DNA of 64,000 bases from Marsupella aquatica (Eukaryota > Plantae > Marchantiophyta), in assembly GCA_973895155.1 (NCBI GenBank), contig OZ316891.1:1-64000 (forward strand), written 5' to 3'. Shown piece by piece: positions 2,738 through 64,000 of this stretch. A program made the position numbers and the translations under genes. The notes beneath the pieces were generated by a model. It saw nothing but the letters and a program-made list of their open reading frames with translations, did not search any database and was not told the DNA's origin. Every line of letters starts with the position of its first letter. The first letter of the stretch is position 1.

Positions 2738-5700
2738 TAATCATTAAACTGTTAAACCCTTTCAAGGTATTATAAACACTTAATGAACACTCAACTATTA
2801 TTTGATTCCTAACCATAACAATCTTTATGGTGCAACCTCTCGCCAAGTAATGAGTATCCACTGATTCCACCAGGCTACAAGTAGTCAATTCAGATTGGCG
2901 GCAGAAGAATAATCATTTTGCCTTGAGTAACTCTGAAGTGTGATTCATTTATGCCTGGTTTGGCCTTGATTTGTCATCCGTCACACCTGGTCATCCCGCC
3001 CCTATCCTGACACCGTCCCAACCTCATCCCAACCCTATCCCAACCCCACCCGGTCCCAACCACACCCCGTAGGGCAACACGTAAACTTGCCCGTTAACTC
3101 AAACCGGGCATTTATCCCACACAAAGATCATCCAACCCCAGGGGCAGGTGAATAATCATTATGCATGGAGTAACTCTGGAATGTGACTCATTTCTGCCAA
3201 GGGAAGATCATCCAAACCCAAGGGAATGCAGCACATTGAACATGGTCAGAACATTGAACTACACAAACAAGGAGGGAGCTCGACCTGTACTTGCTCTAGG
3301 TTGGTCTCCTAGTGGTGTTGGCTATGCTGATGAGGAAGAAGCCTGAAGCACTTGTTGCTGCAAGCTGCCTCTCTCCGGCCACAATTCCAGGATCCTGAAA
3401 ATTAAGCTTCACACCCTGACTTGGGCGTATGCCCAGGTTGACATTTTCCCTCCCTATCATTCTTATTGTTCGGAGAACATGATTGACAGTGAGTTTTGAA
3501 GTAAATTCTGGTGTATTATCCTTTTCCTTTTAATTAGTAGATATTTAAAAAGCAGAAGGGTTTGCAGAATTTATCACAAAGGACATGGTTACATTTCATT
3601 ATATTGAGTTTATGATGGTTTTATTACATTTTGCTTTGAACTTTTTATTGAATACTCCACGTTTCTCAGATTGCACAAGGGGATCTGGTTGTTGGGATGA
3701 CTTTGTGAGTGCAAAATCTACTTCCTTTAGTAGTTGGGAAGCTATCGGCCCTCTTTCACAAGATATTGCCTTACACGTCATTCAAAAGTAAGTTGGCTTC
3801 AAGCACTATTGTTGCCAATGATATGAAGCTCTACATGCACTTGGACAAATGAGTTTCAGTTTCAGGTTTCTTGTCATTGTTTTTGGTCATCCTCAAGACA
3901 CTAAATCCTTTTAGTGTTCTGTGCAGTGTCATTCATGCCAACATTGTACAAATATTGAGGCGAGACCAAGGAAAGAACTGTACACTCCTTGGGACAAATC
4001 AATAGTAGATTTATGAAGGTGAGTACCTCAACATCAAAATTCCCCCTTTCTCCCCACCTACATGTTGAATTATTCATAAATCTAATGATAAAAATTACAA
4101 CTTACGGCATTTCGGTACTCAGATCTGAAATGGTTCGTGTACTATTTGACCGGAATTGTAATATTTACTGAATTGGAATTAGAATAAACAAATTCAGTGG
4201 ATTTGTTTGCTATAGTGTGGGAAAATCTAAAAAAATTGAACACCATAAAATTAAAGTTTACACTTTATTGGATTCTTTGTTATAAAAACATTCTTGAACT
4301 GTTTGTTAGAAAAGTTCTTAAACTAAAGTCCTCAAGGTTTTGAAGGACAGTATTTTTGAATGGCTATGATCACAGATCTCACCTTTTGGACGTGGTTACA
4401 ATTATCCCTATTTTCATTGCTCCCCATGTGAATGAGGGTACTTTTATCTCCTGAGGGTACCCTTGTGCATGAGGGTACTCTTATCAGTGAGGGTACTCTT
4501 ATCAATGTGGTACATTTATCAACGATGGTACTTAATTAGATCAATGAGGGTACCCTTATCAATGAGGGTACTCTTATCTCCTGAGGGTACCCTTGTGCTT
4601 GAGGGTACTCTTATCAACGAGGGTACTCTTATCAGCGAGGGACTCTTATCAGCGAGGGTACTCTTATCAATGGGTACGCTTATCAACAATGGTACTTTGA
4701 TCAGTGAGGGTACCCTTATCAATGAGGGTACTCTTATCTCCTGAGGGTACCCTTGCGTATGAGGGTACTCTTAAGTATCAATGAGGGTACACTTATCAAC
4801 AATGGTACTTTGATAATGAGGGTACCCTTATCAGTGAGGGTACTCTTATCTCCTAAGGGTATCCTTGTGTTGGGCCTTGTCCATGAGGGTACTCTTATTA
4901 ATGAGGGTACTTTTATTAGTCATAGCAAGCAACAAAGCGGGCAGGGACCCCATGAAGGCGCCCTGCGCCGGTAGAAGGACTCCAAACGTACTGAAAAGAC
5001 CCTAAACCTCACCGGACCAGCATTTTGGGTATTGCAGGGACAAATACCAGCCAAAGTACATGCCTGAATTTACCTGCTCTATATTGGTTCCCTAAACCAG
5101 AGGTGATTTTTTTCATCAAATCCATACATTGTATCCTAGTTTTTTTCGCACATGATGTACAAACCTACATAATGTGAAAGTGGGGGAGAAGAAAAACAGC
5201 AAAAACCAAAGCAAGCAAAAAAAAATTCAGCTTTTTCCAGGAAGAAAAAAAAACTTCACCGTCAGGGGGGAAGGAAAAAAAAACTCCAGCTTCAGGCGCT
5301 AGGGAAAAAAACTTGAGGAAGGGCAGGGAAGGAAAAACAATTTGAGCTTCAGGAAAGGGAAACTTTAAGATTTTAGACGATAGGAAAACTTCAGGTAAGA
5401 GTCAAATGTTTTTTTGTAGTATTTGTAAATTAGAGTCAGGAGTTTTGAACTATCTATTCTCTTCGGTGAATTTGTTTTGGCTACCTTGTTCTCTAGAAAG
5501 GCAAGCATTGTGCATCGGTTGAAGTGCAAAGAAGATAGGACGGTATTTTCTTTCCTGGGTATCGATCAATAGACACGTTATTTAAATATGGGGTACCATT
5601 TATTCTAGTAAACAATTCTCTCATTACATTCAATATAAATGGACCCTAAACTCCCCCTGCCCCATTCTGGTCTGGTCTAGTTTTACTCCTCGACACCTCC

Positions 5701-6873
5701 GTATCTATTTCATACTCAGATTATACATTTTCATTTTTACCATCAACCCTAGATTTTCAGAACCTAGAAGCGACGTGTGAGCCGCACTTCACACAAATCA
5801 AAATTTATTTTCCCCAGTCCCACATGACCTGCCAATTTTCCCTCACACTGGACACTTACATCTAGATAAAAAAACACTACTCAAATGGATGGCTGTATGA
5901 CATAACAAATGTGTTGTACAACACCTCATTTGTGGCCGAAAACTCATTTGTGGCCGAAGACTGTTGGTGTAACAAACAATCTTCCTACTTTACCTGACCT
6001 GCATGATTACATCATTTCGTCACGTTTATAGTCTTGTGTCCATGTATGTAAAACCCCACATTTTTACAGCCCAGCTTAGTACATTCCTTAATACATTCAT
6101 TTGTACTTTAATTATGATTATTAGATTACCCCGGCATTTGCTTCGTATCTATGTGTAGGATTACCCCAGCTTTGTATCCATGGGTGTGGCCAATTTCCAA
6201 ACATTAACCTTACTAGTACTTTATTGATTATAAGATTACCCCGGCTTTTGTATTCATGTGTATGGCACAAATCCTAAACATTAATTAATGTATATTTATT
6301 GATGGATAAGATTACCCCAACTTTCGTATCCGTGTGTATGGCACAATATCCTAAGATTAACTTGTCTAGTACATTGCTTTGTGATTGGATTACCCCGAGG
6401 TTCGGATGTATTCCTAACATTAACCTTAGTTGTACATTACTCGATTATTAGATTACCCTAGCTTGTGCATGATATCCACGTATATGGCCCAATTTCCTAA
6501 ATAATATGAACCATAATACCGCATTACATGACCTCAACTTTTGTATCTCTTACTGACAATGGCCATTTATCATGTAAACAGTGTCAACAGTGTGTGGTTT
6601 TCTCAGAATACTCTAAACCCTAAACCTTGTTCCTTTTCTTTCAATAGTGTTGTGTGGGTTTATCAGAATACTTGGCCTTTACAGATGAACACCTTTTAAG
6701 ATTAAGAGTGTACCAAGGGTTAGCGCGAGGTGCAATACAATGCCCACAACAAGATAGATTAGGCAATTCAACCATACTACCCTGCTGTGCCTGTTTGTTC
6801 CCGAAAAAACCTTCACCCATACTGGAAGGTTGCCCATTCAACCTCCTTATAGTAGCAGACTGAACAGAAATCA
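2738..6873. repeat. Long direct repeat block A, copy 1 (non-coding; contains 18-bp array)
   Basis: Begins TAATCATTAAACTGTTAAACCC and ends CTGAACAGAAATCA; colinear with 37744-48537 (e.g. short ORFs 3161..3346 and 38159..38344 are near-identical). Confidence 0.93.
4432..4915. repeat. ~18-bp tandem array (GAGGGTACTCTTATCAAT-like) with quasi-palindromic GGGTACCC/GGGTACTC core
   Basis: Direct reading; homologous arrays at ~31195-31605 and at 39430-39468 + 46072-46570 (split by Copia). Confidence 0.9.
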
Positions 6874-7577
6874 TCACAACTAATCCAAAAACGCAGACTA
6901 CTGGACAGTACAGTGAGTACTTCTGATTATTATACAGTAAGAGTGTGTGTGGTCAGTGATGATGTGGTTTGTCAATAGCTTCTCATCCCACTTTATAAAA
7001 ACAACAGTGAGGACAGTCTGACCAGCACCGCATTTCTTCATTAATGAACATGTCTGTTTACGGTAGTCCACAAAACAAGACATTCCACTCGTAAACAAAA
7101 TAAGACATTCCACTTAGAGCAGCATTGCTCTCCTATTGTTCAACTGAGTAATCACTTATCAAAGTGGCTTCAACTGTGGCTGTGCGTTATAGAATACCCC
7201 CATCCCACGTACCCCCCTTCACCTTCAATACTGTAATTTTGATACGTAAAGACTTTCGTGGCTTTTCTCTTTGTATATTTGAGTGCATTAATTCTCCATA
7301 ATGCACCCCTTTTTTTGAGGAGGGGATTATACAAAACACCTACCTGATACTAACACAATATCTATGAATAGAATCTAATATAACTAAAGAAGGTATATTT
7401 TTGGCCAATTCCATAGCAACCACTTCTTGGATGACCCTTTAATTTGAATTTTCTATTTCAGGGATTCACTTTTTCTTGTTTGTTACCAAAAAGTCACTCA
7501 AGTTTTTACGTACATTAAATGTCCTAGTTACGGGCATTATATCCCACAATGCCCTCTAACCAGGACATTATCCTATT

Positions 7578-7842
7578 AATACCCTTCAGAGCACATGGGC
7601 ATTAATTTGCATTACCCCAGCCCATGGTGGCTGTGCATTTTAGAATACCCCATCCCTCATACCCCCAACCTTCAAAATACTGTAATTTGATACATACATA
7701 CCCTTCGGAGCACATTGGCACTTGCATTACCCCAACACATGGTGGCTGTGCGTTTTGGAATACCCCATCCCTCGTAACCCCCAACCTTCAAAATACTGTA
7801 ATTTGAAACATACATACCCATCTGAGCACATGGGCATTTCCC
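7578..7842. repeat. About two orphan units of the 116-bp satellite
   Basis: CATGGTGGCTGTGC..GAATACCCCATCCCTCGTA..AACCTTCAAAATACTGTAATTTGA, as in 14385-15545; a further fragment at ~7175-7245. Confidence 0.85.
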
Positions 7843-7853: not shown

Positions 7854-8973
7854 TTTGTATCTCATTTCCCACGTCCAAAATTGAATGGTGACACATTTGA
7901 TGCTAACGGAGTTTAAAGGTTTCAACATGAAAGCTATGGGAGTCTACGGTTTAACCGGAAATGTTATGGGAGCCTCCACTTTAACCGGAAATGTTGTGGG
8001 AGTCCATATGCTGAAACTTGGAGACATACCATGTATCGCATGTGAGACACAGCCTTTACATAAGAGTGTTGTATGGTGGGTTGGACAGTGAAGGCGATTT
8101 GGGTCCTAGGAGTGTCTGAATGGAGTTGCAACACAGATGGAGGTGAGTAGCAAGGCATGGATACCGCAACCATGGATGTTGTACAGAAGAGAAGCTCCAT
8201 CACTGCACACTCAGCCTGAAACCATGCCACGCCACTGCCACCAGTAAGCATAAAAAATGCAACCATTCGGAAATGCCTTCGCTCGAAGACTGCATCCGAC
8301 AGTGAATGACTCTAATCCATCACTTGCTGCAATTATTGACGATGTCAGTACGCCATCCAAGCGATGCAAGATTCAAGATGCAGATTGAAGGGAATTTGGA
8401 GGTGGCGAGCACAGTCAGGACCAGATTGAAGGCCAGCGACAGGAATTCTCGAAGGCCAATGCTTCCCGACCAAAATACCGACCCAACAATAATGCAGAAG
8501 GGAATTTGAAGGTGACGAGCACATTAAGGAACCAGATTGAAGGCTGGTACAAGAATTCTAGAAGCATTGACCAAGCTTTGTTTCCTTTGTATTTCTCACG
8601 AACCCAAATTGAATGGTGACACTTTTGATGCTAACGGAGTCCAATGGTTTCAACATGAATGTTATAGCTGCAAAAGACATTTATTGGAAATGTTATGGGA
8701 GTGCGGGACTACAAGTGAGTCACAATGAATGCTAGTGGTGTATGAACACTTAAAAAATAATGTTATGGGAGCCTACGGCAACCACCCGTAAGTCACCCTA
8801 ATCAATACTAGTGGAGTTTAAAGGTTTTGATAATAATGTTGTGGGAGTCCAAATAATGAAATGTTGAGACCGTGCACTGCATGTAGGAGACCATGCACCG
8901 CGGTCCCTAAATACCCTGAAATGGCCTGAAGACCGGCCTCATTGCACGCGCTGTGCAGAGAAGATATATACAG
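7854..8973. repeat. Duplicate (block C) of 19722-20969, including the 3' end of the 20823 coiled-coil ORF
   Basis: Short ORFs 7885..8091 and 19753..19959 are near-identical; both blocks end at GCAGAGAAGATATATACAG. Confidence 0.9.
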
Positions 8974-10326: not shown

Positions 10327-13300
10327 TCAGCCATCGAAACAATAAATATTAGCATGGAAAGTCAACAATGAATGTTGGCCGTGGATTTTAAATGAACGGG
10401 CCAGATGCTTGTATACACACGACCACACCATCTTCTTCACGACCGCCACTACACTTGTTACAGGCCTCCAAAACAGCCACACAGCCGCTGCACTACGGCC
10501 GTAATGCGCCGATAATATATATAGGTCTTCCAACTTGCTCTGTGACTCTAATCTGAACAACTGAAGTTGTGTGCTCACATCATCTCGTTGTTTAGTGCAC
10601 CCTGCAAGTTCACTTTCCAATTCTTCCATGCGCATTTGGATATCCTTCAAAGCACATTCAGCACCTAAACATGATTCCATGCGCACTGCCTGCTCTACAA
10701 CCTTCCGTTGAACATCTTCAAACTTGCAGTCTGACGACAATTTCAACAACTCAAGTTCATTGATCGCGGCATCTCGTCCTGCAACACACCTTTCAAGGTC
10801 AGCACTCAATTCTGCCATGCGCGATTGGTCCTCCTTCCAACCTTGTTCAGCAGCTTGGTAATTGTCATTGCGCTTTGTCACCTGCACAAGCTTTTCTTCA
10901 AGGTCTTTCAACTTCCATTGTGACTGCAATTTGAACTCTTCAAATTCGCTGGTGGCCGCATCTCGTTCTGCAGTGCCCATTTGAAGTTCAGCACTCAATT
11001 CTGCCAAGCGTGATTGGTCCTCCTTCCAACCTTGTTCAACAGCTTGGTATTCGTCATTGCGCTTTGTCACCTGCACAAGCTTTTCTTCAAGGTCTTTCAA
11101 CTTGCATTGTGACTGCAATTTGAACTCTTCAAATTTGCTGGCGATAGCATCTCGTCCTACAGTGCCCATTTGAAGTTCAACACTCAATTCTGCCATGCGC
11201 GATTGGTCCTTCTTCCAACCTTGTTCAGCAGCTTGGTATTCATCATTGCGCATTGTCACCTGCATAAGCTTTTCTTCAAGGTCTTTCAACCTGGACTGTG
11301 ACTGCAATTTGAACTCTTCAAATTCGCTGGTGACCGCATCTCGTTCTGCAGTGCCCATTTGAAGTTCAGCACTCAATTCTGCCATGCGTGATTGGTCCTC
11401 CTTCCAACCTTGTTCAGCAGCTTGGTATTCGTCATTGCGCTTTGTCACCTGCACAAGATTTTCTTCAAGGTCTTTCAACCTGCATTGTGACTGCAATTTG
11501 AACTCTTCAAATTTGTTGGTGATCGCATCTCGTCCTGTAGTGCCCATTTGAAGTTCAACACTCAATTCTGCCATGCGTGATTGGTCCTCCTTCCAACCTT
11601 GTTCAACAGCTTGGTATTCGTCATTGCGCTTTGTCACCTGCACAAGCTTTTCTTCAAGGTCTTTCAACTTGCATTGTGACTGCAATTTGAACTCTTCAAA
11701 TTTGCTGGCGATAGCATCTCGTCCTACAGTGCCCATTTGAAGTTCAACACTCAATTCTGCCATGCGCGATTGGTCCTTCTTCCAACCTTGTTCAGCAGCT
11801 TGGTATTCATCATTGCGCATTGTCACCTGCATAAGCTTTTCTTCAAGGTCTTTCAACCTGGACTGTGACTGCAATTTGAACTCTTCAAATTCGCTGGTGA
11901 CCGCATCTCGTTCTGCAGTGCCCATTTGAAGTTCAGCACTCAATTCTGCCATGCGTGATTGGTCCTCCTTCCAACCTTGTTCAGCAGCTTGGTATTCGTC
12001 ATTGCGCTTTGTCACCTGCACAAGATTTTCTTCAAGGTCTTTCAACCTGCATTGTGACTGCAATTTGAACTCTTCAAATTTGTTGGTGATCGCATCTCGT
12101 CCTGTAGTGCCCATTTGAAGTTCAACACTCAATTCTGCCATGCGTGATTGGTCCTCCTTCCAACCTTGTTCAACAGCTTGGTATTCGTCATTGCGCTTTG
12201 TCACCTGCACAAGCTTTTCTTCAAGGTCTTTCAACTTGCATTGTGACTGCAATTTGAACTCTTCAAATTTGCTGGCGATAGCATCTCGTCCTACAGTGCC
12301 CATTTGAAGTTCAACACTCAATTCTGCCATGCGCGATTGGTCCTTCTTCCAACCTTGTTCAGCAGCTTGGTATTCATCATTGCGCATTGTCACCTGCATA
12401 AGCTTTTCTTCAAGGTCTTTCAACCTGGACTGTGACTGCAATTTGAACTCTTCAAATTCGCTGGTGACCGCATCTCGTTCTGCAGTGCCCATTTGAAGTT
12501 CAGCACTCAATTCTGCCATGCGTGATTGGTCCTCCTTCCAACCTTGTTCAGCAGCTTGGTATTCGTCATTGCGCTTTGTCACCTGCACAAGATTTTCTTC
12601 AAGGTCTTTCAACCTGCATTGTGACTGCAATTTGAACTCTTCAAATTTGTTGGTGATCGCATCTCGTCCTGTAGTGCCCATTTGAAGTTCAACACTCAAT
12701 TCTGCCATGCGTGATTGGTCCTCCTTCCAACCTTGTTCAGCAGCTTGGTATTCGTCATTGCGCATTGTCACCTGCACAAGCTTTTCTTGAAGGTCTTTCA
12801 ACCTGCATTGTGACTGCAATTTGAACACCTCAAATTCTCTGGTGACCGCATCTCGTCCTGCATTGCACATTTCTTGTTCAACACTCAAATTTGCCATGCA
12901 CGATTGGTTCTCATTCCAACCTTCTCCAGCATCTTCATATTCGTCATTTCGCATTGTCTGTGCCGTCAACTCCCCTTCAAGGTCATCAATCCTGCCTTCT
13001 AACTTTGATTCCGATGACTGAAGTTTACATTGAATAGGTTGAGGTTGGGTTTCCCTTCTTGTAGTACCCTCGTTGCCAACATTTGGCCCCGATATAAGGC
13101 TTTCCCATGAAAATCCCCAATGTAGCAGCAACTGTGTAATAGCAGTCCCACAATAAGCGGGGAACGCCTTTGACTCACGAACATTCCTCATACCCTGAAG
13201 GTGTTTCTTGAATTTACTTATTTCCAAAGCCAATTCATCGTAAACTAAATCACTCCAATCTGGTAGCAATTTTGGCACAGGGCCTGCTAGTCTTTTTCCC

Positions 13301-13833
13301 TTCGGCAAAGTACCACACAAATACCAGTAGAAATAACTCAATTGTTTTGCTGATAACTGTGAAGGCTTCTCCTTACCCAGCAGAATTTCCTGCACCACTC
13401 TAATTGCCCCAGACCATCTATCATACGGAGCTCTCAAAAGCTTTAAACTATAGGGATTCCCTCTTATTCGTGGACGAACAAACAAATCATTGAATTCAGG
13501 ACAATGCATTCTCTGCCTATACTTGGCAAATGTACCAGATGGCAGCTTGAATGCCGCACGTAACACATCTTGTGTGATTTTCAATGAACATCCTCGGAAT
13601 TCACTGGATTTTGATGCATAATCAAATCCCAACACAAACTCCTTCACCCCACATACGGCTGTTATGTTGTAATCAATCCCAAAAGTTTGTTGCAGACCAA
13701 GGTTGAAAATCATTGACGATCGAGTTGGATCACCTCCCACCAAACTGCGAATTCGTTCCGGTGTGCAGGAATGCCACAACGTTCCAGTGCCGCCTGTTTC
13801 AATTCCAACCCACGGATTGTCAAAATGTTCCAC
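10327..13833 (-). CDS. 1168-aa ORF: plant-transposon-protein-like N-terminal domain + eleven near-perfect 63-aa coiled-coil repeats; native C-terminus replaced at 10523
   Basis: Open frame. Motif EFVLGFD..RGCSLKITQDVLRAAFKLP..DWSDLVYDEL..YCGTAITQLL is shared with three other ORFs in the window. The paralog at 57886+ continues into SNF2 instead of YILSAHYG. Start is GTG, so the true 5' end is uncertain. Confidence 0.75.
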   Translation of the reverse strand: MEHFDNPWVGIETGGTGTLWHSCTPERIRSLVGGDPTRSSMIFNLGLQQTFGIDYNITAVCGVKEFVLGFDYASKSSEFRGCSLKITQDVLRAAFKLPSGTFAKYRQRMHCPEFNDLFVRPRIRGNPYSLKLLRAPYDRWSGAIRVVQEILLGKEKPSQLSAKQLSYFYWYLCGTLPKGKRLAGPVPKLLPDWSDLVYDELALEISKFKKHLQGMRNVRESKAFPAYCGTAITQLLLHWGFSWESLISGPNVGNEGTTRRETQPQPIQCKLQSSESKLEGRIDDLEGELTAQTMRNDEYEDAGEGWNENQSCMANLSVEQEMCNAGRDAVTREFEVFKLQSQCRLKDLQEKLVQVTMRNDEYQAAEQGWKEDQSRMAELSVELQMGTTGRDAITNKFEEFKLQSQCRLKDLEENLVQVTKRNDEYQAAEQGWKEDQSRMAELSAELQMGTAERDAVTSEFEEFKLQSQSRLKDLEEKLMQVTMRNDEYQAAEQGWKKDQSRMAELSVELQMGTVGRDAIASKFEEFKLQSQCKLKDLEEKLVQVTKRNDEYQAVEQGWKEDQSRMAELSVELQMGTTGRDAITNKFEEFKLQSQCRLKDLEENLVQVTKRNDEYQAAEQGWKEDQSRMAELSAELQMGTAERDAVTSEFEEFKLQSQSRLKDLEEKLMQVTMRNDEYQAAEQGWKKDQSRMAELSVELQMGTVGRDAIASKFEEFKLQSQCKLKDLEEKLVQVTKRNDEYQAVEQGWKEDQSRMAELSVELQMGTTGRDAITNKFEEFKLQSQCRLKDLEENLVQVTKRNDEYQAAEQGWKEDQSRMAELSAELQMGTAERDAVTSEFEEFKLQSQSRLKDLEEKLMQVTMRNDEYQAAEQGWKKDQSRMAELSVELQMGTVGRDAIASKFEEFKLQSQCKLKDLEEKLVQVTKRNDEYQAVEQGWKEDQSRLAELSAELQMGTAERDAATSEFEEFKLQSQWKLKDLEEKLVQVTKRNDNYQAAEQGWKEDQSRMAELSADLERCVAGRDAAINELELLKLSSDCKFEDVQRKVVEQAVRMESCLGAECALKDIQMRMEELESELAGCTKQRDDVSTQLQLFRLESQSKLEDLYILSAHYGRSAAAVWLFWRPVTSVVAVVKKMVWSCVYKHLARSFKIHGQHSLLTFHANIYCFDG
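10530..13030 (-). repeat. Coding tandem repeat, 189-bp unit (63 aa = 9 heptads) with 567-bp higher-order trimer repeated three times
   Basis: GACTGCAAT at 10922, 11111, 11300 ... 12812 (period 189); variants TTGRDAITNK / TAERDAVTSE / TVGRDAIASK cycle in threes. Confidence 0.95.
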
Positions 13834-14384
13834 ATATCATCACTAAACCGCAATGCAAAATTCAACTATATGCAATGACGACCAACTATTAAGTATTGTA
13901 ATCCAAACCTTCCTTTTCCACCTCCTTGTAGGGCTGGACCTCGTCGTAAGGTGACTCTGCCTTGTCCTCCATGTTTTGGATCTACTGTCCTTGAAATTCA
14001 CTTCTGTCGTATGAAAGGTAGTCCAATTAAGTAAACCCTAATCCTATCACCAACACATTGCCGTGAGCAACTCATGAGGCTTACTCGACGGAAGGAGGGT
14101 ATTGACACGCAAGGAGCCTCTCAAAACATGACAGATTCCATTTCTGCAAAGCTGCTTGTTGCTCTATTGGATGTTGTCAATCCATGTACTTAAACTTAAA
14201 CTCCCTGTTGTGAAGAAACATTCCCTTTGTTATGAAGCGTCTTGTCCAAGTCACTGCCAACCTTTCTGGAATCCGGAAGATGCGAACTAAAATGCTCCTA
14301 TATTGTCAGCACCCCATAAGCACCAAAGTTGTGCATAGTTGGTGCTCGGGTAAAGGGCGTTGTACAGTCCTTCTGTATTACCCG

Positions 14385-15545
14385 AGCACACTGTGGCTGT
14401 GCGTTATAGAATACCCCATCCCTCGTACCCCCAACCTTCAAAATACTGTAATTTGATACATACATACCCTTCGGTGCACATTGACATTGTTTTGCATTAC
14501 CCCAGAACATGGTGGCTGTGGGTTTTGGAAAACCCCATCCCTCGTACCCCCCAACCTTTAAAATACTGTAATTTGATAATACATGTACCCTTTGGAACAC
14601 ATTGGCACTTGTATTACCTCATGGTGGTTGTGCGTTTTGGAATACCCCATCCCTCGTACCTCAACCTTCAAAATACTGTAATTTGATACATACATACCCT
14701 TCAAAGCACATTGGCACTTGCATTACCCGAGCACTTGGTGACTATGCGTTTTGGAATACCCCATCCCTCGTACCCCCCAACCTTCAAAATACTGTAATTT
14801 GATATATACATACCCTTCGGAGCACATTGGCACTTGCATTACCCCAGCACATGGTGGCTGTGCATTTTGGAATACCCCATCCCTCGTACCCCCCAACCTT
14901 CAATACTGTAATTTGATACATACGTACCCTTCGGTGCACATTTACATTTGCATTACCCCAGCACATGGTGGCTGTGCATTTTGGAATACCCCATCCCTCA
15001 TACCCCTCAACCTTCAAAATACTGTAATCTGATATATACATACCCTTTGGAGCACATTGGCACTTGCATTACCCCAGCACATGGTGGCTGTGAGTTTTGG
15101 AATACCCCATCCGTCGTACCCCCCAACCTTCAAAATACTGTAATTTGATATATAGATACCCTTTGGAGCACATTGGCACTTGCATTACCCCAGCACATGG
15201 TGGCTGTGCATTTTGGAATACCCCATCCGTCGTACCACCCAACCTTCAAAATACTGTAATTTGAAACATACATACCCATCCGAGCACATGGACATTTGCA
15301 TTACCCCAGCACATGGTGGCTGTGCATTTGGAATACCCCATCCCTCATACCCCTCAACCTTCAAAATACTGTAATTTGATATATACATACCCTTCGGAGC
15401 ACATTGGCACTTGTATTACCCCAGCACATGGTGGCTGTGAGTTTTGGAATACCCCATCCCTCGTACCCCCCAACCTTCAAAATATTGTAATTTGATACAA
15501 ACATACCCTTTGGAGCACATTGACATTTGCATTACCCCAGCACAT
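14385..15545. repeat. 116-bp tandem satellite (~10 units)
   Basis: Unit CATTACCCCAGCACATGGTGGCTGTGCATTTTGGAATACCCCATCCCTCGTACCCCCCAACCTTCAAAATACTGTAATTTGATA.. Confidence 0.93.
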
Positions 15546-52000: not shown

Positions 52001-52489
52001 CGCACACATGCATACAATCTCGATTTACACGAAGGAAAATGATGGGAAAGGATTTTACTACAAAGGGAACATATGCGTACACTTAGTTGACACGACAGCC
52101 CTGGAATGCACAGGTTCAAGGCCGAGGGTGCACACTACAACGGAGCCCGGCTCCGCACTCGCCCGGCGAGCTTAGTCCTACCCCCTCCCCTTGGTACTCT
52201 GTCATTCCCAGAGGTCGGGACTCCCCGCATGTCCCGCGGATGTCCGACTCTGAAACTAAAAACCCCCCCTGCCTCTACCGAGGGGTGCTCTAAATACTAA
52301 GAGCCGAGGAACAGGGTGTCCTCCCGCCGAAGATTCGCTGACTAAGGTCCTAACTAAGCTGACAATCAGGCCAGAAAACGGCTGTGTCTTATTAGAAGAT
52401 CCTAATCTACGCAGGCTGGACAGCAGGGCAGCGCTGCTGTACCTAAGGCAGGTGCCTGTCCCAAGAGCCTGACTAAGCCAATCCTAATC

Positions 52490-55193
52490 CTAATCTATTC
52501 CTACTCTGCCGCTAATGCCTGGCACGCTTGCCAGAGCCGCCGAATGGGAACGGCCATCCCGCTGCCTTCGAAGCCTGTCATTGTCCGCTTTGAGGAGCTG
52601 GACCTGGTCCAGCAGAGATTTGTTCTCTCGCCTTGCCGCGTCCGTCTCCTCTGCTGCCTCCTGACATGCCTCCTCCAGCTGCTGGGCGTCGCTCGTCAGT
52701 TTACTCGCCAGCTGGTCCTGCTTCTCGGCCTCGGTTTGGAGCCGCGCCATCTCGGCCTGCAGCGTGGCTATCTCCGTCGCGTCCCGCTGGGCTCGCTCCT
52801 CGGCCTCCTCCAGGTCTTTCTGCCAGGTGATAGCTTGTTTCTTCAAACTGTCAATCTGGTTCCGGAGTCGTGTAATCTCGGCCTCGTTCCCAGCTTTGGC
52901 CTGTTCGGCTAGGGCGGTAAGAGCGTACGCCTTTGCTAACAACTCATCGGCGGCTGCAACCTTGGGTCGTAGTTGCAGAAGCTCAGCCTCTTGAGCCGCC
53001 ACTTCGTTCTTTAGGTACACGGACTCCACCCGGTACCGCTCTATCCTCTGAAGGGCCTCCGACTGGGCCCGACCTGCCTTTACGGCGGCAACCAACTCCT
53101 GATTGAAGAAACAGGCTACCTTCCGGGCCATGAACTCCCCGGTATCCCGGGAAATTTGATGAGAGAAATCTCCCAGAAGCCCGTTCAGAAACGTACCCTG
53201 TACGAAGAGTTCCGGGTGGTCCAAGTTGTGCCTGTCCGGATTTGGGCACGGGCAGACATCAACACGCGCAGGGGCCGGGGCAGTGACGTCCAGCCCTGGG
53301 GACATAACGTTGGAAGGGGCTGGAGTGTCCTCCTGCAACGATGTCCAGTTCTCTGGAATTGCCACCGGCGGGTCCTTGGGAGACCCGGGTTCGGGTAAGA
53401 CCTCTGCCGTACCAACTTCTGTACTTAGCCCGGCTAGTTGGGTTGCATCAACGGTTGCGACGACCGACCCCTCCGGCGCCTCCTCGGTTACGATTACAGC
53501 TATTTGTGGAGGTGGGGTGGGTGAAGCTGGCGTGTCCACTGGACTTCGGGCCTCGGGTTGGGGCCGTCTCTCCAATGCCGGAAAAACCCACCTAGCTGGG
53601 ACCAGCCTTGTAACGTTGATGCGGGGAAGGGTTCGTCGATCAAACCGGGCGTACCACTCAAGAATGATTTCGATATGGCTAGCGAAATACGCCTTCCCGC
53701 CAATGTACAGCGTCTTCCTTCGCCGCTCCATCTCTTCATGGAATTTCTTAGCGAAGTACGATGCCCATTTCCTAGGTCGATAGTTCTCGACCTGGATAAC
53801 CTGGGCGGCGTAGATCTCCCCCCGGGGTTCCATCATGTGGAGAGCGTACCCTAAACCCTAAACCCTAAACCCTAAATCCTCTGGAACTCCAGCCGCTCAG
53901 CTATCTCGGGCATGAGGCAGGTCCTCATCACGAACCCGTTGTCTACTGATCCCTCTGAGGGAAAACTTGAAGATTGGTACTTGGCCCCCTTGGCCCCGGG
54001 AGCCCGTGATTCGACTCGATGGTCACCTTCGGGTAACCCGAAGATCATCTTGAGCCGTTCTTCTGTGAGGGACATATTCCTTCCCCGCAGCCGAGTCTAT
54101 TGATGTACGTCGTCATAATTCTTGACGAATTCTGTCATGTCCTCCCCGTAGTACCTGCAAGTGTTCCAGGGGAGAGAGGTGAGGTGCTCAAATCCCTGAG
54201 TCTTCAGGTACACCGCATGCTTGGGATGGAGGATGTTGCTATGAACGTTTTCCCCCATGCGATGCATCGTCACCTTGGCTACGGCTACCGTGGCCAACGG
54301 TAACCCGGATGCAGTGGCGGATTCCTTCCTCTTCTTTCCCCGTGACTGACTCGGGGAAGGTGATACTTCCCCATCCTCCCGATCGGGCCTGGGGAGTGCC
54401 ACTGCGGTTGGTAACGGGCCCGGGGCGGCCACGGTCACTATGTTGTCTGCTGGGGCCGCTCTTGGGGTCAGAGGGGGGGTGGGGACGATATAGTGTCGGC
54501 CCCCCGAGCGCTTGTTCCTCTGGGCCGCCTGGTCAAGGGTGGGGTAGCCTCGTCGTCATCGCTAAGATCCACAGCGTTGATGACGGAGCGTACCTGTGCT
54601 GGCTGGGTGATAGGTGGTGGGGTTTGGCTAGGCTGCGGCTGAGGCTGAAGCTGAAGCTGAGGTTGAGGCTGAAGCTGAGGTTGCATGGGCACGGGTACGG
54701 GTACGGGCCCGGCTGAGTTGGTCATGTTGGTTGATGGCCGAGTTCCCATGAAGCTCTGCAGGTGCTGGTAGAAGTTCTCCGAAGCGAGTGCGGACGCCCT
54801 TGTCAAACGGTTGGTACTGGACTCGCCGTTAATGACAGCCCGAACCTGGGCAGGGATGTGGTCGAAGTGATGTCGCTGCAGGTCGATTGTACCCGGGATA
54901 TTGAAGACCTCGTCCGGAAGCCGAAGCAATGCTTCCCAGAACCCGATATATTTGTCTCCGTTGAAGAAGTACCCAGATACCTCAGCTGGTCGGTAAAGCT
55001 CGCTCTGAGACGGGTAGTCAAAGTTAAGGACGTAGTGGTGTCGTCTTGCTAGGCGGATGGCTCTCTCGTATTCGCGTTCGATCTCGTATCGGCGCGGGTT
55101 GGCGTGTTTCAATGAATCGGCCAAGTGCCTTCCGGTAGATAGGAACTGCGTCCAGAATCGAATGGCCCAGCTGGAGAGGATCGTGTGCGACAT
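52490..55193 (-). pseudogene. ~890-aa gene inside the insertion: N-terminal domain, PQ-rich linker, plant-transposon-protein-like domain, Pro-rich linker, coiled coil; three lesions
   Basis: Four ORFs join through a frameshift in the C-run at ~54473-54479, an in-frame TAG at 54097-54099 and a 29-nt telomere insertion at 53849-53877. The domain aligns with 27347..28936 (H..YL...G, DM..F..N.D, ERLEFQ..ALH, W..Y, F.SH..I.L). Confidence 0.8.
53849..53876 (-). repeat. (TTTAGGG)4 inserted within coding sequence
   Basis: CCCTAAA x4 on the plus strand. Confidence 0.95.
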
Positions 55194-55293
55194 TCAGAGG
55201 AGATAGTAGTGGCGACCTAGAGAGAACGAGAGAGCTGGGGTCGAAGCTGGCGCGTGGATTGATGGACTGGTGCACTACAAAGGGTTGGCTCCC

Positions 55294-55301
55294 CTTTTAT
55301 A
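55294..55301 (-). promoter_or_regulatory. Candidate TATA box of the 4-kb insertion
   Basis: TATAAAAG on the minus strand ~100 nt upstream of ATG 55193, followed by a CT-rich leader; ~360 nt from the element end. Confidence 0.55.
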
Positions 55302-58300
55302 CTTTGAGGGCTTGTCGATCCCCGACGTCTCCTCGACGCCCATAGGTTGAACCGCTCACGCTTGTGGTGTACCGGCCACTCCGCCGGTCTGAGTCAACGT
55401 GCGTCAGTGGCCGCTTCCTTAAGTTCGTTATACGGACCCGAGGGAGGGGCCCCTCCACGCTCGTAACCCGGGTGTGCGAATAGCGACCCGCCGCCAGCCC
55501 GAACCTGAAGTCCCCCTTATTGCCTAATGATGTCCTACCCCTAATGATTACCTAAATACTGTCGTTATGCTAATAATAGCGGCCTAAGACCCACCTAACG
55601 CGCGTGCCGAGCGCAGTTAGACTGAATCACTCATTAACCGCCATACCGGCGGCGTCACAAAAGACAAGGTCACGATGCCCACAGTGGCGTCTCATTCTCA
55701 GCATCAATGACAGCAATTTAGCTTTCTCTTTCTTATTTCCCTTCTGTGAAGCCCACAAATCGACCCGGTTGAGTAATTGTACAAAACAACAGGGCAACCA
55801 CGGTATCTGTGCACAATTGAAGAATGACAAAGTACACCCACATAGGGTGGGCCAAACTTTGGACATACCGAGTCTTCCGCTGCACTCCTTGCCTCTAATT
55901 TCTTATACACTATGGCATCGCCTTCAACTAAAAAGTCGAGATGAGCTACTCTTACATGCTTCTTAGGTAGATTCAGGATACCTGCAAACAAAATATGTCC
56001 AGCTATAAGATTGCATACAAACATACAACACATCTAAATCCATATGAAATTCAACCAATTCCAAATAATGGAAAAGTCCAATTCCAACACATGTGAACAT
56101 TGTAGTTGTAGTTGTCTTACTCTTATCTCTTCTCAATGTAATGGCCCTCAGCTCCTTGTGTAGTATTGCGTGTCCAGCTTTCCTACTTTTTGCAATATGC
56201 TACCTCAAAATCTTGAACCGGTCTATGTCACAGTAAGGGGGGTATCCAAGAAATTTGAAATAATTGTATGCCTCCCAAGTAGAATTTGACACAGGAGTTC
56301 CACTTACACACCATCTGCTTCTTGCATGTAGGTTGCAAGCAGCTAATGCTCTGCCACTCCTATGGTTTGAGATTGCCTGACACTCGTCTAGAATCACCCT
56401 GTACCATTGTACCTGCTCCAGGCAAGGAGGCAATGGATCCTTCGTTTTCTTGGGTGTTGGCTCCACAGGAATTTTTTGACTTAATTTCCCTTTCCTTCTC
56501 AGTGTAGGTGGGTCCGCAGTGGAATGTTGGGCGAGAGTGCCATAAGTGGTAATTATAACATCGTATAAGGCCAACTGCTTTGGATCCATACATCTGTCCG
56601 ACCCGTGAAATATTAACACCTTTACATTTGCCCTTGCAGTAGTTTAGTGGTAATCTCACGTTTCCATTGAGTCATAACACTTCCAGGACAAACGATAAGG
56701 GTCTTGCTTCTGGGTGGTCGATTGGTGACTAAGAGTGTAATCAGTTGAATTGTCTTCCCCATTCCCTACCAACAAATACAGTTAGTTCATTTCATGCAAT
56801 GGGGAAGAAAATTCCAAGTTCACACCACAAAACACATGATGACCCTGAAGTCAATGCGCAGCCCACTCAACATTAGGAAATGATGTGAGCTTTAGGGTTT
56901 TACCTGGTCATCTGCCAAAATACCCCCAAAACATTGGGAATCACCACTCTCCCTTGACAACATCCAGAATAGACCTTTCCGTTGATGTTGATAAACTGTC
57001 ACATTTTGCATAAGCCCATCTGGTGGGCTTGCTTCTCCTGTGAAGTCCCTATCATCGATGTATTCCTGCAATGGTCACGGAATAACAGTCAGCCTTCTTA
57101 ACCGGCTCTACTCATCCAAACTGAGTATTTGGACAAGACGCTGCGACATGGTTAGTTTACTCACTCGTTCCTCTGCTTGCAAAAAAGGTTGGACTCGGAC
57201 TCGGGGAAAGTCCATCTCTGAATCTGAATCTGAACAGGAATCTGCGATTGTACGACGCACGGAGGTAGCGTCAATGTCAATATGATCCAAGCTATCCCCT
57301 TCATTATCAAAAGACCACAACAGTCGTCGCCTTTTTGGGGGGTCCTCCAAATTAATACGAGTCAATTGCGAGACCACAGATGGAGAACAACTTGCAATCT
57401 CATCCCTCTGTACGCGATTTTTACATGGCACTGGCACTGTTGTCATTTCATTGTTGGAGGTTGAACCAAGTAATGGACGTCCATGAGCTTGCCTCTTTGG
57501 TTCCGCGATGAACGGTATAACTGGTTCAGCGTTCGACACTTGCTTTCTCTTCAAATTCCTCACTGTACATTCCAACTCTTCAACCTTTGCAAGAGCTATG
57601 TGCAATTGGTCATCCTTGAATTTTAATTCTACTTTCTGAGTCGAAATTATTTGTTGCAAGTCTACATTCTCGCCCAATCTACAATGCACCTGTTCAAGCT
57701 CTGCCATTGTACGCTCTAAGTCCAATTTCAAAGACTCCACGTTAGTGCGCTGAGTATTGCGTTCGGCAGTGCACTTTGCTACCTCATTTCTCAGTTCCCC
57801 CATGCACATTTCGTTCTCCTTCAAAGCTTTGTGAGCAATTGCGTATTCCGCCTTCAGCCTTGTCTGTTCTACAAGTGCTCGTTGAAGGTCTTCCAACTTG
57901 CTCTATGACTCTAATCTGAACAACTGAAGTTGTGTGCTCACATCATCTCGTTGTTTAGTGCACCCTGCAAGTTCACTTTCCAATTCTTCCATGCGCATTT
58001 GGATATCCTTCAAAGCACATTCAGCACCTAAACATGATTCCATGCGCACTGCCTGCTCTACAACCTTCCGTTGAACATCTTCAAACTTGCAGTCTGACGA
58101 CAATTTCAACAACTCAAGTTCATTGATCGCGGCATCTCGTCCTGCAACACACCTTTCAAGGTCAGCACTCAATTCTGCCATGCGCGATTGGTCCTCCTTC
58201 CAACCTTGTTCAGCAGCTTGGTAATTGTCATTGCGCTTTGTCACCTGCACAAGCTTTTCTTCAAGGTCTTTCAACTTCCATTGTGACTGCAATTTGAACT

Positions 58301-60201
58301 CTTCAAATTCGCTGGTGACCGCATCTCGTTCTGCAATGCCCATTTGAAGTTCAGCACTCAATTCTGCCATGCGTGATTGGTCCTCCTTCCAACCTTGTTC
58401 AGCAGCTTGGTATTCGTCATTGCGCTTTGTCACCTGCACAAGCTTTTCTTCAAGGTCTTTCAACTTGCATTGTGACTAAATTTGAACTCTTCAAATTTGC
58501 TGGTGATAGCATCTCGTCCTACAGTGCCCATTTGAAGTTCAACACTCAATTCTGCCATGCGCGATTGGTCCTTCTTCCAACCTTGTTCAGCAGCTTGGTA
58601 TTCATCATTGCGCATTGTCACCTGCATAAGCTTTTCTTCAAGGTCTTTCAACCTGGACTGTGACTGCAATTTGAACTCTTCAAATTCGCTAGTGACCGCA
58701 TCTCGTTCCGCAGTGCCCATTTGAAGTTCAGCACTCAATTCTGTCATGCGTGATTGGTCCTCCTTCCAACCTTGTTCAGCAGCTTGGTATTCGTCATTGC
58801 GCTTTGTCACCTGCACAAGATTTTCTTCAAGGTCTTTCAACCTGCATTGTGACTGCAATTTGAACTCTTCAAATTTGTTGGTGATCGCATCTCGTCCTGT
58901 AGTGCCCATTTGAAGTTCAACACTCAATTCTGCCATACGTGATTGGTCCTCCTTCCAACCTTGTTCAGCAGCTTGGTATTCGTCACTGCGCATTGTCACC
59001 TGCACAAGCTTTTCTTCAAGGTCTTTCAACCTGCATTGTGACTGCAATTTGAACACCTCAAATTCTCTGGTGACCGCATCTCGTCCTGCATTGCACATTT
59101 CTTGTTCAACACTCAAATTTGCCAGCACGATTGGTTCTCATTCCAACCTTCTCCAGCATCTTCATATTCGTCATTTCGCATTGTCTGTGCCATCAACTCC
59201 CCTTCAAGGTCATCAATCCTGCCTTCTAACTTTGATTCCGATGACTGAAGTTTACATTGATACCGTTGTGGCATTCCCTCTTATTTGTGGACGAACAAAC
59301 AAATCATTGAATTCAGGACAGTGCATTCTCTGCCTATACTTGGCAAATGTACCAGATGGCAGCTTGAATGCCGCACGTAACACATCTTGTGTGATTTTCA
59401 ATGAACATCCTCAGAATTCATTGGATTTTGATGCATAATCAAATCCCAACACAAACTCCTTCACCCCACATACGGCTGTTATGTTGTAATCAATCCCAAA
59501 AGTTTGTTGCAGACCAAGGTTGAAAATCATTGACGATCGAGTTGGATCACCTCCCACCAAACTACGAATTCGTTCTGGTGTGCAGGAATGCCACAACGTT
59601 CCAGTGCCGCCTGTTTCAATTCCAACCCACGGATTGTCAAAATGTTCCACATATCATCACTAAACCGCAATGAAAAATTCAACTATATGCAATGACGACC
59701 AACTATTAAGTATTGTAATCCAAACCTTCCTTTTCCACCTCCTTGTAGGGCTGGACCTCGTCGTAAGGTGACTCTGCCTTGTCCTCCATGTTTTGGATCT
59801 ACTGTGCTTGAAATTCACTTCTGTCATATGAAAGGTAGTCCAATTAAGTAAACCCTAATCCTATCACCAACACATTGCCGTGAGCAACTCATGAGGCTTA
59901 CTCGACGGAAGGAGGGTATTGACACGCAAGGAGCCTCTCAAAACATGACAGATTCCATTTCTGCAAAGCTACTTGTTGCTCTATTGGATGCTGTCAATCC
60001 ATGTACTTAAACTTAAACTCCTTGTTGTGAAGAAACATTCCCTTTGTTATGAAGCGTCTTGTCCAAGTCACTGCCAACCTTTCTGGAATCCGGAAGATGC
60101 GAACTAAAATGCTCCTATATTGTCAGCACCCCATAAGCACCAAAGTTGTGCACAGTTGGTGCTCGGGTAAAGGGCGTTGTACAGTCCTTCTGTATTACCC
60201 G

Positions 60202-61710
60202 AGCACACTGTGGTTGTGCGTTATAGAATACCCCATCCCTCGTACCCCCAACCTTCAAAATACTGTAATTTGATACATACATACCCTTCGGTGCACATTG
60301 ACATTGTTTTGCATTACCCCAGAACATGGTGGCTGTGGGTTTTGGAAAACCCCATCCCTCGTACCCCCCAACCTTTAAAATACTGTAATTTGATAATACA
60401 TGTACCCTTTGGAACACATTGGCACTTGTATTACCTCATGGTGGTTGTGCGTTTTGGAATACCCCATCCCTCGTACCTCAACCTTCAAAATACTGTAATT
60501 TGATACATACATACCCTTCAAAGCACATTGGCACTTGCATTACCCGAGCACTTGGTGACTATGCGTTTTGGAATACCCCATCCCTCGTACCCCCCAACCT
60601 TCAAAATACTGTAATTTGATATATACATACCCTTCGGAGCACATTGGCACTTGCATTACCCCAGCACATGGTGGCTGTGCATTTTGGAATACCCCATCCC
60701 TCGTACCCCCCAACCTTCAATACTGTAATTTGATACATACGTACCCTTCGGTGCACATTTACATTTGCATTACCCCAGCACATGGTGGCTGTGCATTTTG
60801 GAATACCCCATCCCTCATACCCCTCAACCTTCAAAATACTGTAATCTGATATATACATACCCTTTGGAGCACATTGGCACTTGCATTACCCCAGCACATG
60901 GTGGCTGTGAGTTTTGGAATACCCCATCCGTCGTACCCCCCAACCTTCAAAATACTGTAATTTGATATATAGATACCCTTTGGAGCACATTGGCACTTGC
61001 ATTACCCCAGCACATGGTGGCTGTGCATTTTGGAATACCCCATCCGTCATACCACCCAACCTTCAAAATACTGTAATTTGAAACATACATACCCATCCGA
61101 GCACATGGACATTTGCATTACCCCAGCACATGGTGGCTGTGCATTTTGGAATACCCCATCCCTCATACCCCTCAACCTTCAAAATACTGTAATCTGATAT
61201 ATACATACCCTTTGGAGCACATTGGCACTTGCATTACCCCAGCACATGGTGGCTGTGAGTTTTGGAATACCCCATCCGTCGTACCCCCCAACCTTCAAAA
61301 TACTGTAATTTGATATATAGATACCCTTTGGAGCACATTGGCACTTGCATTACCCCAGCACATGGTGGCTGTGCATTTTGGAATACCCCATCCGTTGTAC
61401 CACCCAACCTTCAAAATACTGTAATTTGAAACATACATACCCATCCGAGCACATGGACATTTGCATTACCCCAGCACATGGTGGCTGTGCATTTGGAATA
61501 CCCCATCCCTCATACCCCTCAACCTTCAAAATACTATAATCTGATATATACATACCCTTCGGAGCACATTGGCACTTGTATTACCCCAGCACATGGTGGC
61601 TGTGAGTTTTGGAATACCCCATCCCTCGTACCCCCCAACCTTCAAAATATTGTAATTTGATACAAACATACCCTTTGGAGCACATTGACATTTGCATTAC
61701 CCCAGCACAT
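60202..61710. repeat. 116-bp tandem satellite (~13 units)
   Basis: Offset to copy 1 grows from 45817 to 46165 (3 x 116) across the array. Confidence 0.93.
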
Positions 61711-62511
61711 AATTATATACAAGCCATCCGGATAGTGCACTTGTGATGCCCGTTGAACTCAAATTGCCATCGGAAGCTATATATATGGACAGATTGCTTG
61801 ACAGAATTCCACAATTACTTGTTATACTGTATAGTTGATATATTCTTGTGTTCATTTTTCCTGTCCATTTGGAAATTGCACAAATTAACAAAAGTATCCA
61901 TAAAGGTCTGTCATCGTAGAAAGTGATGACATCAAGTCAATTTTGAGCACTCCCTCGAAGGTGTAATTGTTCAGCATTTGTAAATACCTCGCACTATATA
62001 TCACGACTGTACACATTGAATTAGTTCTACTCAGCCATTTCCCACGTCCAAATTTGAATGGTGACACTTTTGATACTAACGGAGTTTAAAGGTTTCAACA
62101 TGAATGCTATTGCTGCAAAAATGTTTAACCGGAAATGTTATGGGAGTTTACGGTTTAACCGGAAATGTTATGGGAGCCTACGAGCAACGAGCACATTAAG
62201 GAACCAGATTGAAGACGGGCAATAGGAATTCTAGAAGCCCAATACTTCCCGACCATAATACCATCCCAACCATGGCGCAGAAGGGAATTTGAAGGCGGCA
62301 AGCACATTAAGGAACCAAATTGAAGGCGGACAGGAATTCTAGAAGGCCAATGCTTCCCAACTATAATACCAGCCCAACCATGGCGTTGAAGGGAATTTGA
62401 AGAAAGTGATGACGTCAAGTCAATTTTAAGCACTCCCTCGGAGGTGTAATTGTTCAGCATTTGTAAATACCTCGCACTATATATCACGACTGTACACATT
62501 GAATTAGTTCT

Positions 62512-63586
62512 AATTAGCCATTTCCCACATCCAAATTTGAATGGTAACACTTTTGATACTAACGTAGTTTAAAGGTTTCGACATGAATGCTATTGCTGCA
62601 AAAATGTTTAACCGGAAATGTTATGGGAGTCGACTACGGTTTAACCAGAAATGTTATGGGAGCTAATCAGCCATTTCCCACGTCCAAAATTGAATGGTGA
62701 CAGTGCTTTTGATACTAACGGAGATTAAAGGTTTCGACATGAATGCTATTGCTGCAAAAATGTTTAACCGGATATGTTATGGGAGTCGACTACGGTTTAA
62801 CCAGAAATGTTATGGGAGCTAATCAGCCATTTCCCACGTCCAAAATTGAATGGTGACACTTTTGATACTAACGGAGATTAAAGGTTTTGACATGAATGCT
62901 ATTGCTGCAAAAATGTTTAACTGGAAATGTTATGGGAGTCGACTACGGTTTAACCGGAAATGTTATGGGAGCTAATCAGCCATTTCCCACATCCAAAATT
63001 GAATGGTGACACTTTTGATACTAACGTAGTTTAAAGATTTTGACATGAATGCTATTGCTGCAAAAATGTTTAACCAGAAATGTTATGGGAGTCGACTATG
63101 GTTTAATCGGAAATGTTATGGGAGCTAATCAGCCATTTCCCACGTCCAAAATTGAATGGTGACACTTTTGATACTAACGGAGATTAAAGGTTTTGACATG
63201 AATGCTATTGCTGCAAAAATGTTTAACTGGAAATGTTATGGGAGTCGACTACGGTTTAACCGGAAATGTTATGGGAGCTAATCAGCCATTTCCCACATCC
63301 AAAATTGAATGGTGACACTTTTGATACTAACGTAGTTTAAAGGTTTTGACATGAATGCTATTGCTGCAAAAATGTTTAACCAGAAATGTTATGGGAGTCG
63401 ACTACGGTTTAACCGGAAATGTTATGGGAGCTAATCAGCCATTTCCCACGTCCAAAATTGAATGGTGACACTTTTGATACTAACGGAGATTAAAGGTTTC
63501 AACATGAATGCTATTGCTGCAAAAATGTTTAACCGGAAATGTTATGGGAGTCTACGGTTTAACCGGAAAATTATGTTATGGGAGCC
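62512..63586. repeat. ~153-bp tandem satellite (~7 units)
   Basis: Offset to copy 1 grows by 154 across the array. Confidence 0.92.
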
Positions 63587-64000
63587 TACGAGCGACGAGC
63601 ACATTAAAGAACCAGATTGCAGACGGGCAATAGGAATTCTAGAAGACCAAATGAATACTTCCCGACCATAATACCAGCCCAACCATGGCACGGAAGGGAA
63701 TTTGAAGGTGAAGAGCACATTAAGGAACCAGATTGAAGGTGGGCGGCAGGAATTCTAGAAAGCCAATCTTTTCCGACTAAAATACCACCCCAACCATAGT
63801 GCAGAAGGGAAGGGTCTGTCGGCAATTTGAATTACTTGTTCCCAAGCTGCTGCCAAGTGCAAGCAAGCGTGGACGTGGGTTCCCACTTTAGTTAGACAAA
63901 CCATATCGAAGAAATTCATTGAACGTGGGACGAACGAAAGTATTGTGCTTGCAAAAAGAATAGAGATAGTTTGTGTCTATCCCAACTTCATATTCTCGTT

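Follow-up and report, generated by a model that had tools for sequence, protein, structure and literature searches.

A telomere-linked-helicase-type recombinase-RecQ gene and its repeated surroundings in the liverwort Marsupella aquatica: a possible engine of a giant self-copying element

We analysed the first 64,000 nucleotides of contig OZ316891.1 (assembly GCA_973895155.1) of the liverwort Marsupella aquatica, hereafter called the window. On the minus strand, at positions 32056-37014, it carries a single open reading frame (ORF) of 1652 aa that is unbroken among broken neighbouring genes. Its product combines a predicted tyrosine-recombinase domain with a RecQ helicase in the layout of the telomere-linked helicases (TLH), and it lies among large repeated blocks of DNA. 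This lead gene could be what drives a giant element that copies itself. The analysis was based on the window itself, on relatives of the encoded protein, on 15 related loci from metagenomes, on contigs of four public sequencing runs over positions 26000-45500, and on published papers.

From the N terminus, the lead protein contains two C2H2 fingers (residues 7-28 and 54-77), an OrsD/DUF3505 domain, the tyrosine-recombinase domain, the RecQ helicase (residues ~1020-1330) and a C-terminal Cys/His motif. Pfam matches were obtained for OrsD/DUF3505, DEAD, Helicase_C and C2H2, and the same library gave no match to DUF3435 (E≤0.01), DUF3504 or GCR1_C in this protein. The catalytic-type residues R747, K781, R870, H898 and Y907 are all present, and we take their catalytic roles from their order and spacing (R-K-(H)-R-H/W-Y). 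Each of them is conserved in at least 97% of the aligned relatives (R747 in 129 of 131, K781 in 130 of 131, R870 in 120 of 123, H898 in 116 of 119 and Y907 in 116 of 118), as counted over the rows with a residue at that position in an alignment of 131 of 172 proteins (rows longer than 250 aa).

A structure model of the recombinase core (modelled span 34135-35400), built from a 100-row alignment, reached a predicted local distance difference test (pLDDT) score of 86.9; a model built from the single sequence had a pLDDT of 35 and was discarded. The best VIA-align match of the core was XerH (Z 10.0, root-mean-square deviation 2.8 over 152 residues), and rows 1-31 of 50 were all tyrosine recombinases, topoisomerase IB or Ndc10, the next unrelated row having a Z of 4.0. 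VIA-align was run on 833 of the candidates proposed by Foldseek, so that it represents a second look at Foldseek's own list. A search of solved structures with the core sequence alone returned no match, and a search with the family profile, the 100 result rows of which were filled by the helicase part, gave BLM, RECQ5 and RecQ as best solved matches. No match at E≤0.001 was obtained for the core model in a library of viral folds, where the top entry was an uncharacterised protein of Feldmannia species virus (B5LWN9, E 0.005, TM score 0.40) that outranked phage integrases. An earlier note on this DNA had named the gene a tyrosine recombinase fused to RecQ, and this holds up as a structural prediction: the model adopts a tyrosine-recombinase fold, the catalytic set is intact and the RecQ helicase follows in the same chain.

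The region that precedes the helicase had 1319 relatives at E≤0.001, the best 150 of which were listed. When 137 of the 151 core-matching proteins were examined, a helicase was found after the core in 52 of the 53 that were long enough to judge. The closest named relatives were P0001 (48-51%) and P0005 of Calypogeia fissa and P0002 of Sphagnum jensenii. A tree was built from 64 of 144 rows (loci plus best hits, with weaker hits left out); in it the window protein was sister to P0001 with a support of 1.0, inside a weaker group (0.75) that also held P0002 and the metagenome loci. Matches in the protein atlas fell in Ascomycota clusters (0.97), three of the 10 long relatives that were looked up were named proteins, all of them basidiomycete helicases, and viral contigs gave 39 pattern hits and no relatives. 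The 15 metagenome loci form a many-copy family, with DNA mostly 70-93% alike, flanks included, and their mutual similarity extends beyond the gene by at least 400 bp on the upstream side and ~800 bp on the downstream side. The DNA that they have in common with the window is confined to the helicase, and the loci are too short to fix element ends. Inside or beside several of these related copies, a repeat of ~800 bp was also found inserted at differing places (L005:3093-3926, L007, L009, L013, L014 and L015).

Self-comparison of the window resolved three kinds of repeated block. Block A is non-coding and is present as A1 (2738-6876), with an 18-mer array at 4432-4916, and as A2 (37744-48540), which is split by a copia element; outside arrays the two are 96.9% identical in the left half and 93.7% in the right half. 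A third, partial block, A3 (30703-31880), consists of the 18-mer array and its flanks, lies directly downstream of the TLH-type gene and is 93-96% identical to A1 and A2. Block B1 (10523-17651), which combines a 189-mer coding array with 116-mer, 108-mer and 153-mer arrays, recurs as B2 (57886-64000, extending past the window end), and its four pieces are 98.5-99.6% identical outside arrays. Block C (19722-20969) forms a pair with C' (7854-8973; 97.6% identical outside arrays), which sits in the A-to-B spacer of copy 1, with 116-mer remnants adjoining it at 7579-7839. This spacer measures 3646 bp in copy 1, where it is made up of C', the 116-mer remnants and low-complexity DNA, versus 9345 bp in copy 2, where it contains SNF2 exons and a GC-rich insert of 4.26 kb. 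The window held no inverted repeats at E≤0.001 and had no match in Rfam. Over its whole length, CCCTAAA occurs 19 times on the plus strand and TTTAGGG five times, and the GC skew is negative throughout. A back-joint from 30420 to 30147 was found at high depth in runs X1, X2 and X3, which suggests a short tandem repeat elsewhere in those genomes.

The earlier note had described the window as two head-to-tail units of ~35 kb led by the recombinase-helicase gene, and much of what it observed is borne out. Continuous identity of block A does begin at 2738 and 37744, the DNA to the left of each being unrelated (best local score of the flanks 23), block B follows block A in both copies, A is more diverged than B, every long ORF lies on the minus strand, and the ATG of the lead gene is 730 bp from 37743. 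The units themselves are not faithful copies: their spacers are unrelated, the SNF2 half is found only in copy 2, and A3 and the C/C' duplication, both missed by the note, add to the patchwork. The SNF2-fusion gene placed by the note inside the 2738-37743 unit is cut there at 10523, after its coiled-coil repeats, and has no SNF2 domain. Regarding the larger offset of copy 2, the two insertions invoked (the 6.6-kb copia element and the 4.26-kb insert) are present and 35.0+6.6+4.3 kb can be set against the 45.8-kb offset, but where B begins on the left the offset amounts to 47.4 kb, and it falls across the 189-bp array, which is of unequal length; since the spacers are unrelated as well, the sum fits partly by accident. 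Because the copies are not collinear and the blocks differ in age, no single copying event accounts for the window, which is a nested patchwork and not two faithful units.

A 10-nt direct repeat, TGCATCTAAT, was found twice in the window and nowhere else in it, bracketing 34.9 kb. The left copy (2732-2741) overlaps the start of A1, and the right copy (37646-37655) lies 632 bp upstream of the ATG of the lead gene; they are candidates for an element end or a crossover core. A match of this length appeared in 17 of 3000 shuffles (p ~0.006). Copy 1 reads as copy 2 minus 92 bp between two TAAT words, and the sequence common to both copies therefore probably begins slightly to the left of the 2738/37744 start, which remains the point at which continuous identity sets in. 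The other block ends in the window showed no further copy of the 10-mer or of its 16-nt context. Judged by sequence, the lead gene would be the first gene inside this candidate direct-repeat boundary. A small hairpin-forming sequence at 2710-2731 abuts the left repeat and may be the terminus of a different element by which copy 1 was cut.

Contigs of the public runs were compared with this spot. One contig each in run X3 (organism B) and run X6 (organism C) departs from the window sequence at 37644|37645 and rejoins block A at 38567, with 12 other letters in between that resemble the 10-mer. Taken at face value, these joints weakly suggest that three arrangements pivot on one spot, and that the link from gene start to block A is common to three organisms and was rearranged at that point. 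In run X1, which possibly comes from the same organism as the window and is in that case not independent, a contig of 5814 nt spans 31960-37773 and stops 30 nt into block A. Summed depth in this run was ~107 over the TLH-type gene, 110-150 over the Myb gene and 290-450 over block A; such depth is not a copy number, and a minor low-depth variant gave differing ratios in X1 and X2. The stop of the contig within A, together with the rise in depth, points to other left neighbours for A.

The genes around the lead gene lie on the same strand. The Myb-fusion gene (25721-28936, minus strand) encodes a transposon-type N-terminal domain, a coiled coil and, at the C terminus, a Myb domain spread over three exons (25721-26263), with CAG acceptors, GT/GC donors (one intron having a GC donor) and the frame kept. 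The Myb domain closes with LKDKW, the telobox core. The telobox motif is that of telomere-repeat-binding proteins, some telobox proteins being transcription factors instead (PMC4924339). The Pfam match to Myb was weak (E 0.018, first helix alone), the Myb exons searched singly had no match among solved structures, and the first exon of the gene had no homolog among 7993 candidates. It can also be observed that a telobox-type Myb gene here adjoins a telomere-linked-helicase-type gene.

A coiled-coil/SNF2 fusion gene is represented twice, both times on the minus strand. Its 5' half in copy 1 (10327-13836) is an open frame cut at 10523 and encodes a transposon-type N-terminal domain followed by 11.6 repeats of 63 aa; copy 2 (50500-59500, outer ends approximate) has exons for SNF2-N, RING and helicase-C domains, found in the window in this copy only, and is disrupted by stops and frameshifts as well as by the 4.26-kb insert. 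The fusion to SNF2 is real, since copy 2 has a phase-0 donor at 57164 after which SNF2 motif I follows, and then RING and helicase C; we take this domain order to be a Rad5/16-like layout. The 63-aa coding array at 10769-12958 shows a three-unit (567 bp) higher-order pattern, and its copy 2 version is shorter and frameshifted. In their N-terminal domains, the Myb and repeat genes are similar to an ORF in the GC-rich insert (pairwise E 1e-11 and 3e-5), a likeness that points to a transposon origin, and presumably these domains are comparable to the accessory ORFs of retrotransposons. Further on the minus strand are two overlapping ORFs of 287 and 283 aa (20823-22471), the second coiled-coil-like by eye, with no Pfam family, and a fragment of a host vacuolar sorting receptor (23947-24141; PF25011, E 2e-13). 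A weaker piece of such a receptor lies at 25159-25350 on the opposite strand (E 0.03).

Two minus-strand insertions are passengers. The first is a young Ty1/copia long terminal repeat (LTR) retrotransposon of 6.6 kb (39469-46071) within the 18-mer array of A2, whose LTRs differ at 1 of 476 nt and which is flanked by a 5-nt target duplication. A single in-frame stop at 43408-43410 lies between its gag and pol, and its summed depth in run X1 was more than 100 times that of the TLH-type gene. The second is the GC-rich TG...CA insert of 4.26 kb inside the SNF2 gene (approximately 51606-55865), with two ORFs, 57% GC in its middle and an observed-to-expected CpG ratio of 0.87, and with neither a target duplication nor an LTR pair. 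Its second ORF is interrupted at 53848-53880 by a 33-bp (CCCTAAA)n stretch, as from telomerase-type repair.

Among known systems, the lead gene is closest to the TLH genes of Magnaporthe oryzae, Fusarium oxysporum, S. pombe, Ustilago, Metarhizium and Monosiga. Common to both are two C2H2 fingers, a conserved domain before RecQ, a length of ~1550-1650 aa, the combination of DUF3505/OrsD with DEAD and helicase C, tandem-repeat blocks around the gene and arrayed units. The TLH motif is said to have been defined by Rehmeyer in 2009. Fungal TLH proteins are characterised by a pair of C2H2 fingers, a conserved domain in the middle and RecQ, and their units of 6-13 kb occur singly or arrayed and have telomere repeats at either side (bioRxiv 10.1101/2024.02.27.582403). 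The Magnaporthe gene lies between blocks of tandem repeats, and in 2006 it was described as having no known function and no counterpart outside fungi (PMC1635262); TLH genes are likewise called functionally uncharacterised in the literature examined. Subtelomere genes of Fusarium carry DUF3505/OrsD, DEAD and helicase C (10.1101/2023.02.05.527183). A choanoflagellate was later added to the TLH-bearing organisms. The present case differs in that its host is a land plant, versus fungi and one choanoflagellate, in that the unit is 35-47 kb long with several extra genes, versus 6-13 kb, and lacks a telomere array in the window, and in that a recombinase fold is predicted for a domain not termed a recombinase in the TLH literature examined. 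Judged by its layout, as set beside published descriptions of TLH proteins, the lead protein is likely a TLH member.

The explanation that we favour, tentatively and at somewhat under an even chance, is that a TLH-type element carrying cargo was multiplied in head-to-tail fashion, with its own recombinase as the likely agent. The gene, its predicted fold, the conserved residues, the repeated blocks and the 10-nt direct repeat come directly from the analysis, and from them we infer the following mechanism. The recombinase domain would nick at or beside the 10-nt core and remain bound through Y907, and the fused 3'-5' helicase would start unwinding there. The copy, displaced or circular, would then be joined up again where a matching core is found, in many cases within or next to a copy already present. 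Head-to-tail arrays would result, with an internal junction of gene start, core and block A (37646) and an outer end of foreign flank, core and block A (2732). At a later stage, adjacent copies would have undergone unequal exchange and conversion, by which the SNF2 gene was cut in the left copy, A3 and C' were dispersed and B came to be younger than A. The remaining genes would be cargo, in which transposon-type domains became joined to domains captured from the host (telobox Myb, SNF2 and the sorting-receptor piece).

Several results weigh against this amplification by an own recombinase. The position of the second histidine of what we take to be the usual motif (HxxR) is occupied by A867 in the window protein, and the top ranks of Foldseek, namely Cre, XerA and lambda integrase, were not significant (best E 0.59). 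There is only one TLH-type gene within the 64-kb window. The 10-mer was spotted after the fact, its alignment needs an extra 92-bp indel and its p of ~0.006 stands by itself. The joints in X3 and X6 are weak, being found on one contig each with short sides of 41 and 25 letters at 85% likeness; among the contigs listed, a small share of all rows because copia matches crowded the tables, none joins the gene start to a foreign flank, and X1 runs straight through 37645-37743. The lack of collinearity, the differing block ages and the related loci described below weigh against it too. A rival is an ordinary patchwork, in which the TLH-type gene, as a small element or a resident, lies amid independent segmental duplications produced by host repair, the large blocks were not copied by the recombinase, and the 10-mer is microhomology or chance. 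The copies are not collinear, the ages of the blocks differ (A 93.7-96.9%, C 97.6%, B 98.5-99.6%), breakpoints fall within a gene (10523) and within arrays, and the A-to-B spacers have no match to each other better than E 0.003. The related loci represent a many-copy gene with none of the window's neighbours (similarity to the Myb, SNF2 or repeat genes in 0 of the 15, which are only 1.2-8.6 kb long), and X1 has one version of the gene over 5.8 kb. Such a patchwork does not sit well with the gene-to-A link, which two other organisms share on their contigs and which is rearranged there just where the 10-mer lies, nor with the uniform gene orientation and the two genes sharing a domain with the transposon-like insert (E 1e-11 and 3e-5), which are unlike ordinary host gene blocks. 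We consider the patchwork account a real but rather doubtful one.

The earlier note had also raised a Y'-like subtelomeric repeat, which comes close, since the protein has the TLH layout (bioRxiv 10.1101/2024.02.27.582403). On this account the window would be a plant counterpart of the fungal TLH subtelomere, spread and homogenised by host recombination between chromosome ends, with a protein that serves telomere upkeep and is not a transposase; it is compatible with an element amplified by its recombinase. Fungal TLH regions are arrayed and flanked by tandem-repeat blocks as in the window, a neighbouring gene has a telobox Myb, and the patchy identity would fit ectopic exchange. However, the 64 kb contain no terminal telomere array, the telomere repeats being limited to one run of 33 bp inside an unrelated insert and two 14-bp doublets left of A1, none of the 15 related loci (1.2-8.6 kb long) has a telomere array, and the Fusarium units measure 6-13 kb with telomere repeats on both sides. 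We regard a purely subtelomeric origin as unlikely. Much less probable still is that the plant here carries a genuine Starship or a gene-capturing element of Helitron type. Helitrons come to mind from the captured gene fragments and the tandem copies, but no Helitron Rep or Pif1 family was detected in the 126 frames scanned (23+103). A leading recombinase, cargo after it and a short direct repeat would follow the plan of Starships, whose captains are described as DUF3435 proteins at the 5' end accompanied by cargo and direct repeats (PMC11162782). The lead protein lacks DUF3435, the defining captain domain, and membership among Starships is thereby largely refuted. By analogy, the region may still work like a Starship though the defining domain is missing.

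Set beside Starships of Pezizomycotina, the window would have a tyrosine recombinase gene first with cargo behind, provided that 37646-37655 is an element end, and has a candidate short direct repeat at both ends; it differs in the missing DUF3435, in the fusion of the recombinase to RecQ and in copies arranged head to tail. Like the Y' elements of Saccharomyces, it has a helicase-bearing repeat, short tandem repeats and tandem occurrence; a recombinase domain is not described for Y' in the portions of the literature examined. Cryptons are likewise eukaryotic DNA transposons with a tyrosine recombinase. DUF3504 and GCR1_C are Crypton markers, and the lead protein, unlike Cryptons, matched neither in Pfam; to our knowledge, Cryptons are a few kb long and without a helicase. 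DNA transposons that carry a helicase are known, RecQ being paired with KolobokH and Academ and an SNF2 accessory gene with Inton and Enton (PMC9587614, PMC3627910). KolobokH has a DDD/E transposase, versus the tyrosine recombinase predicted here. A fungus with 13 subtelomeric RecQ copies is described with no recombinase link in the available text (PMC4522978). The literature search, which did not reach most subscription papers and Repbase Reports and in which most papers were judged by their listings, found no paper calling the TLH domain a recombinase or reporting TLH in plants.

What the window contributes is a plant copy without breaks, set among several genes that include a telobox Myb, together with a candidate target site. 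An intact plant copy with a full recombinase-type active site and a candidate target at 37646-37655 makes the self-propagation of TLH repeats testable in vitro. A bolder extension, which we think possible but doubtful, is that a land plant harbours a live giant cargo element of a new class, with a unit of 35-47 kb, a 10-nt core, one recombinase-RecQ mover and its own telomere-repeat-binding Myb and SNF2 motor, of which the fungal TLH repeats would be stripped-down members; if true, it would explain the spread of fungal TLH repeats among chromosome ends. If the large blocks do not travel with the gene, the window still holds a rare intact plant member of the family, and if they do, plants would have a recombinase-driven cargo element with an origin independent of Starships.

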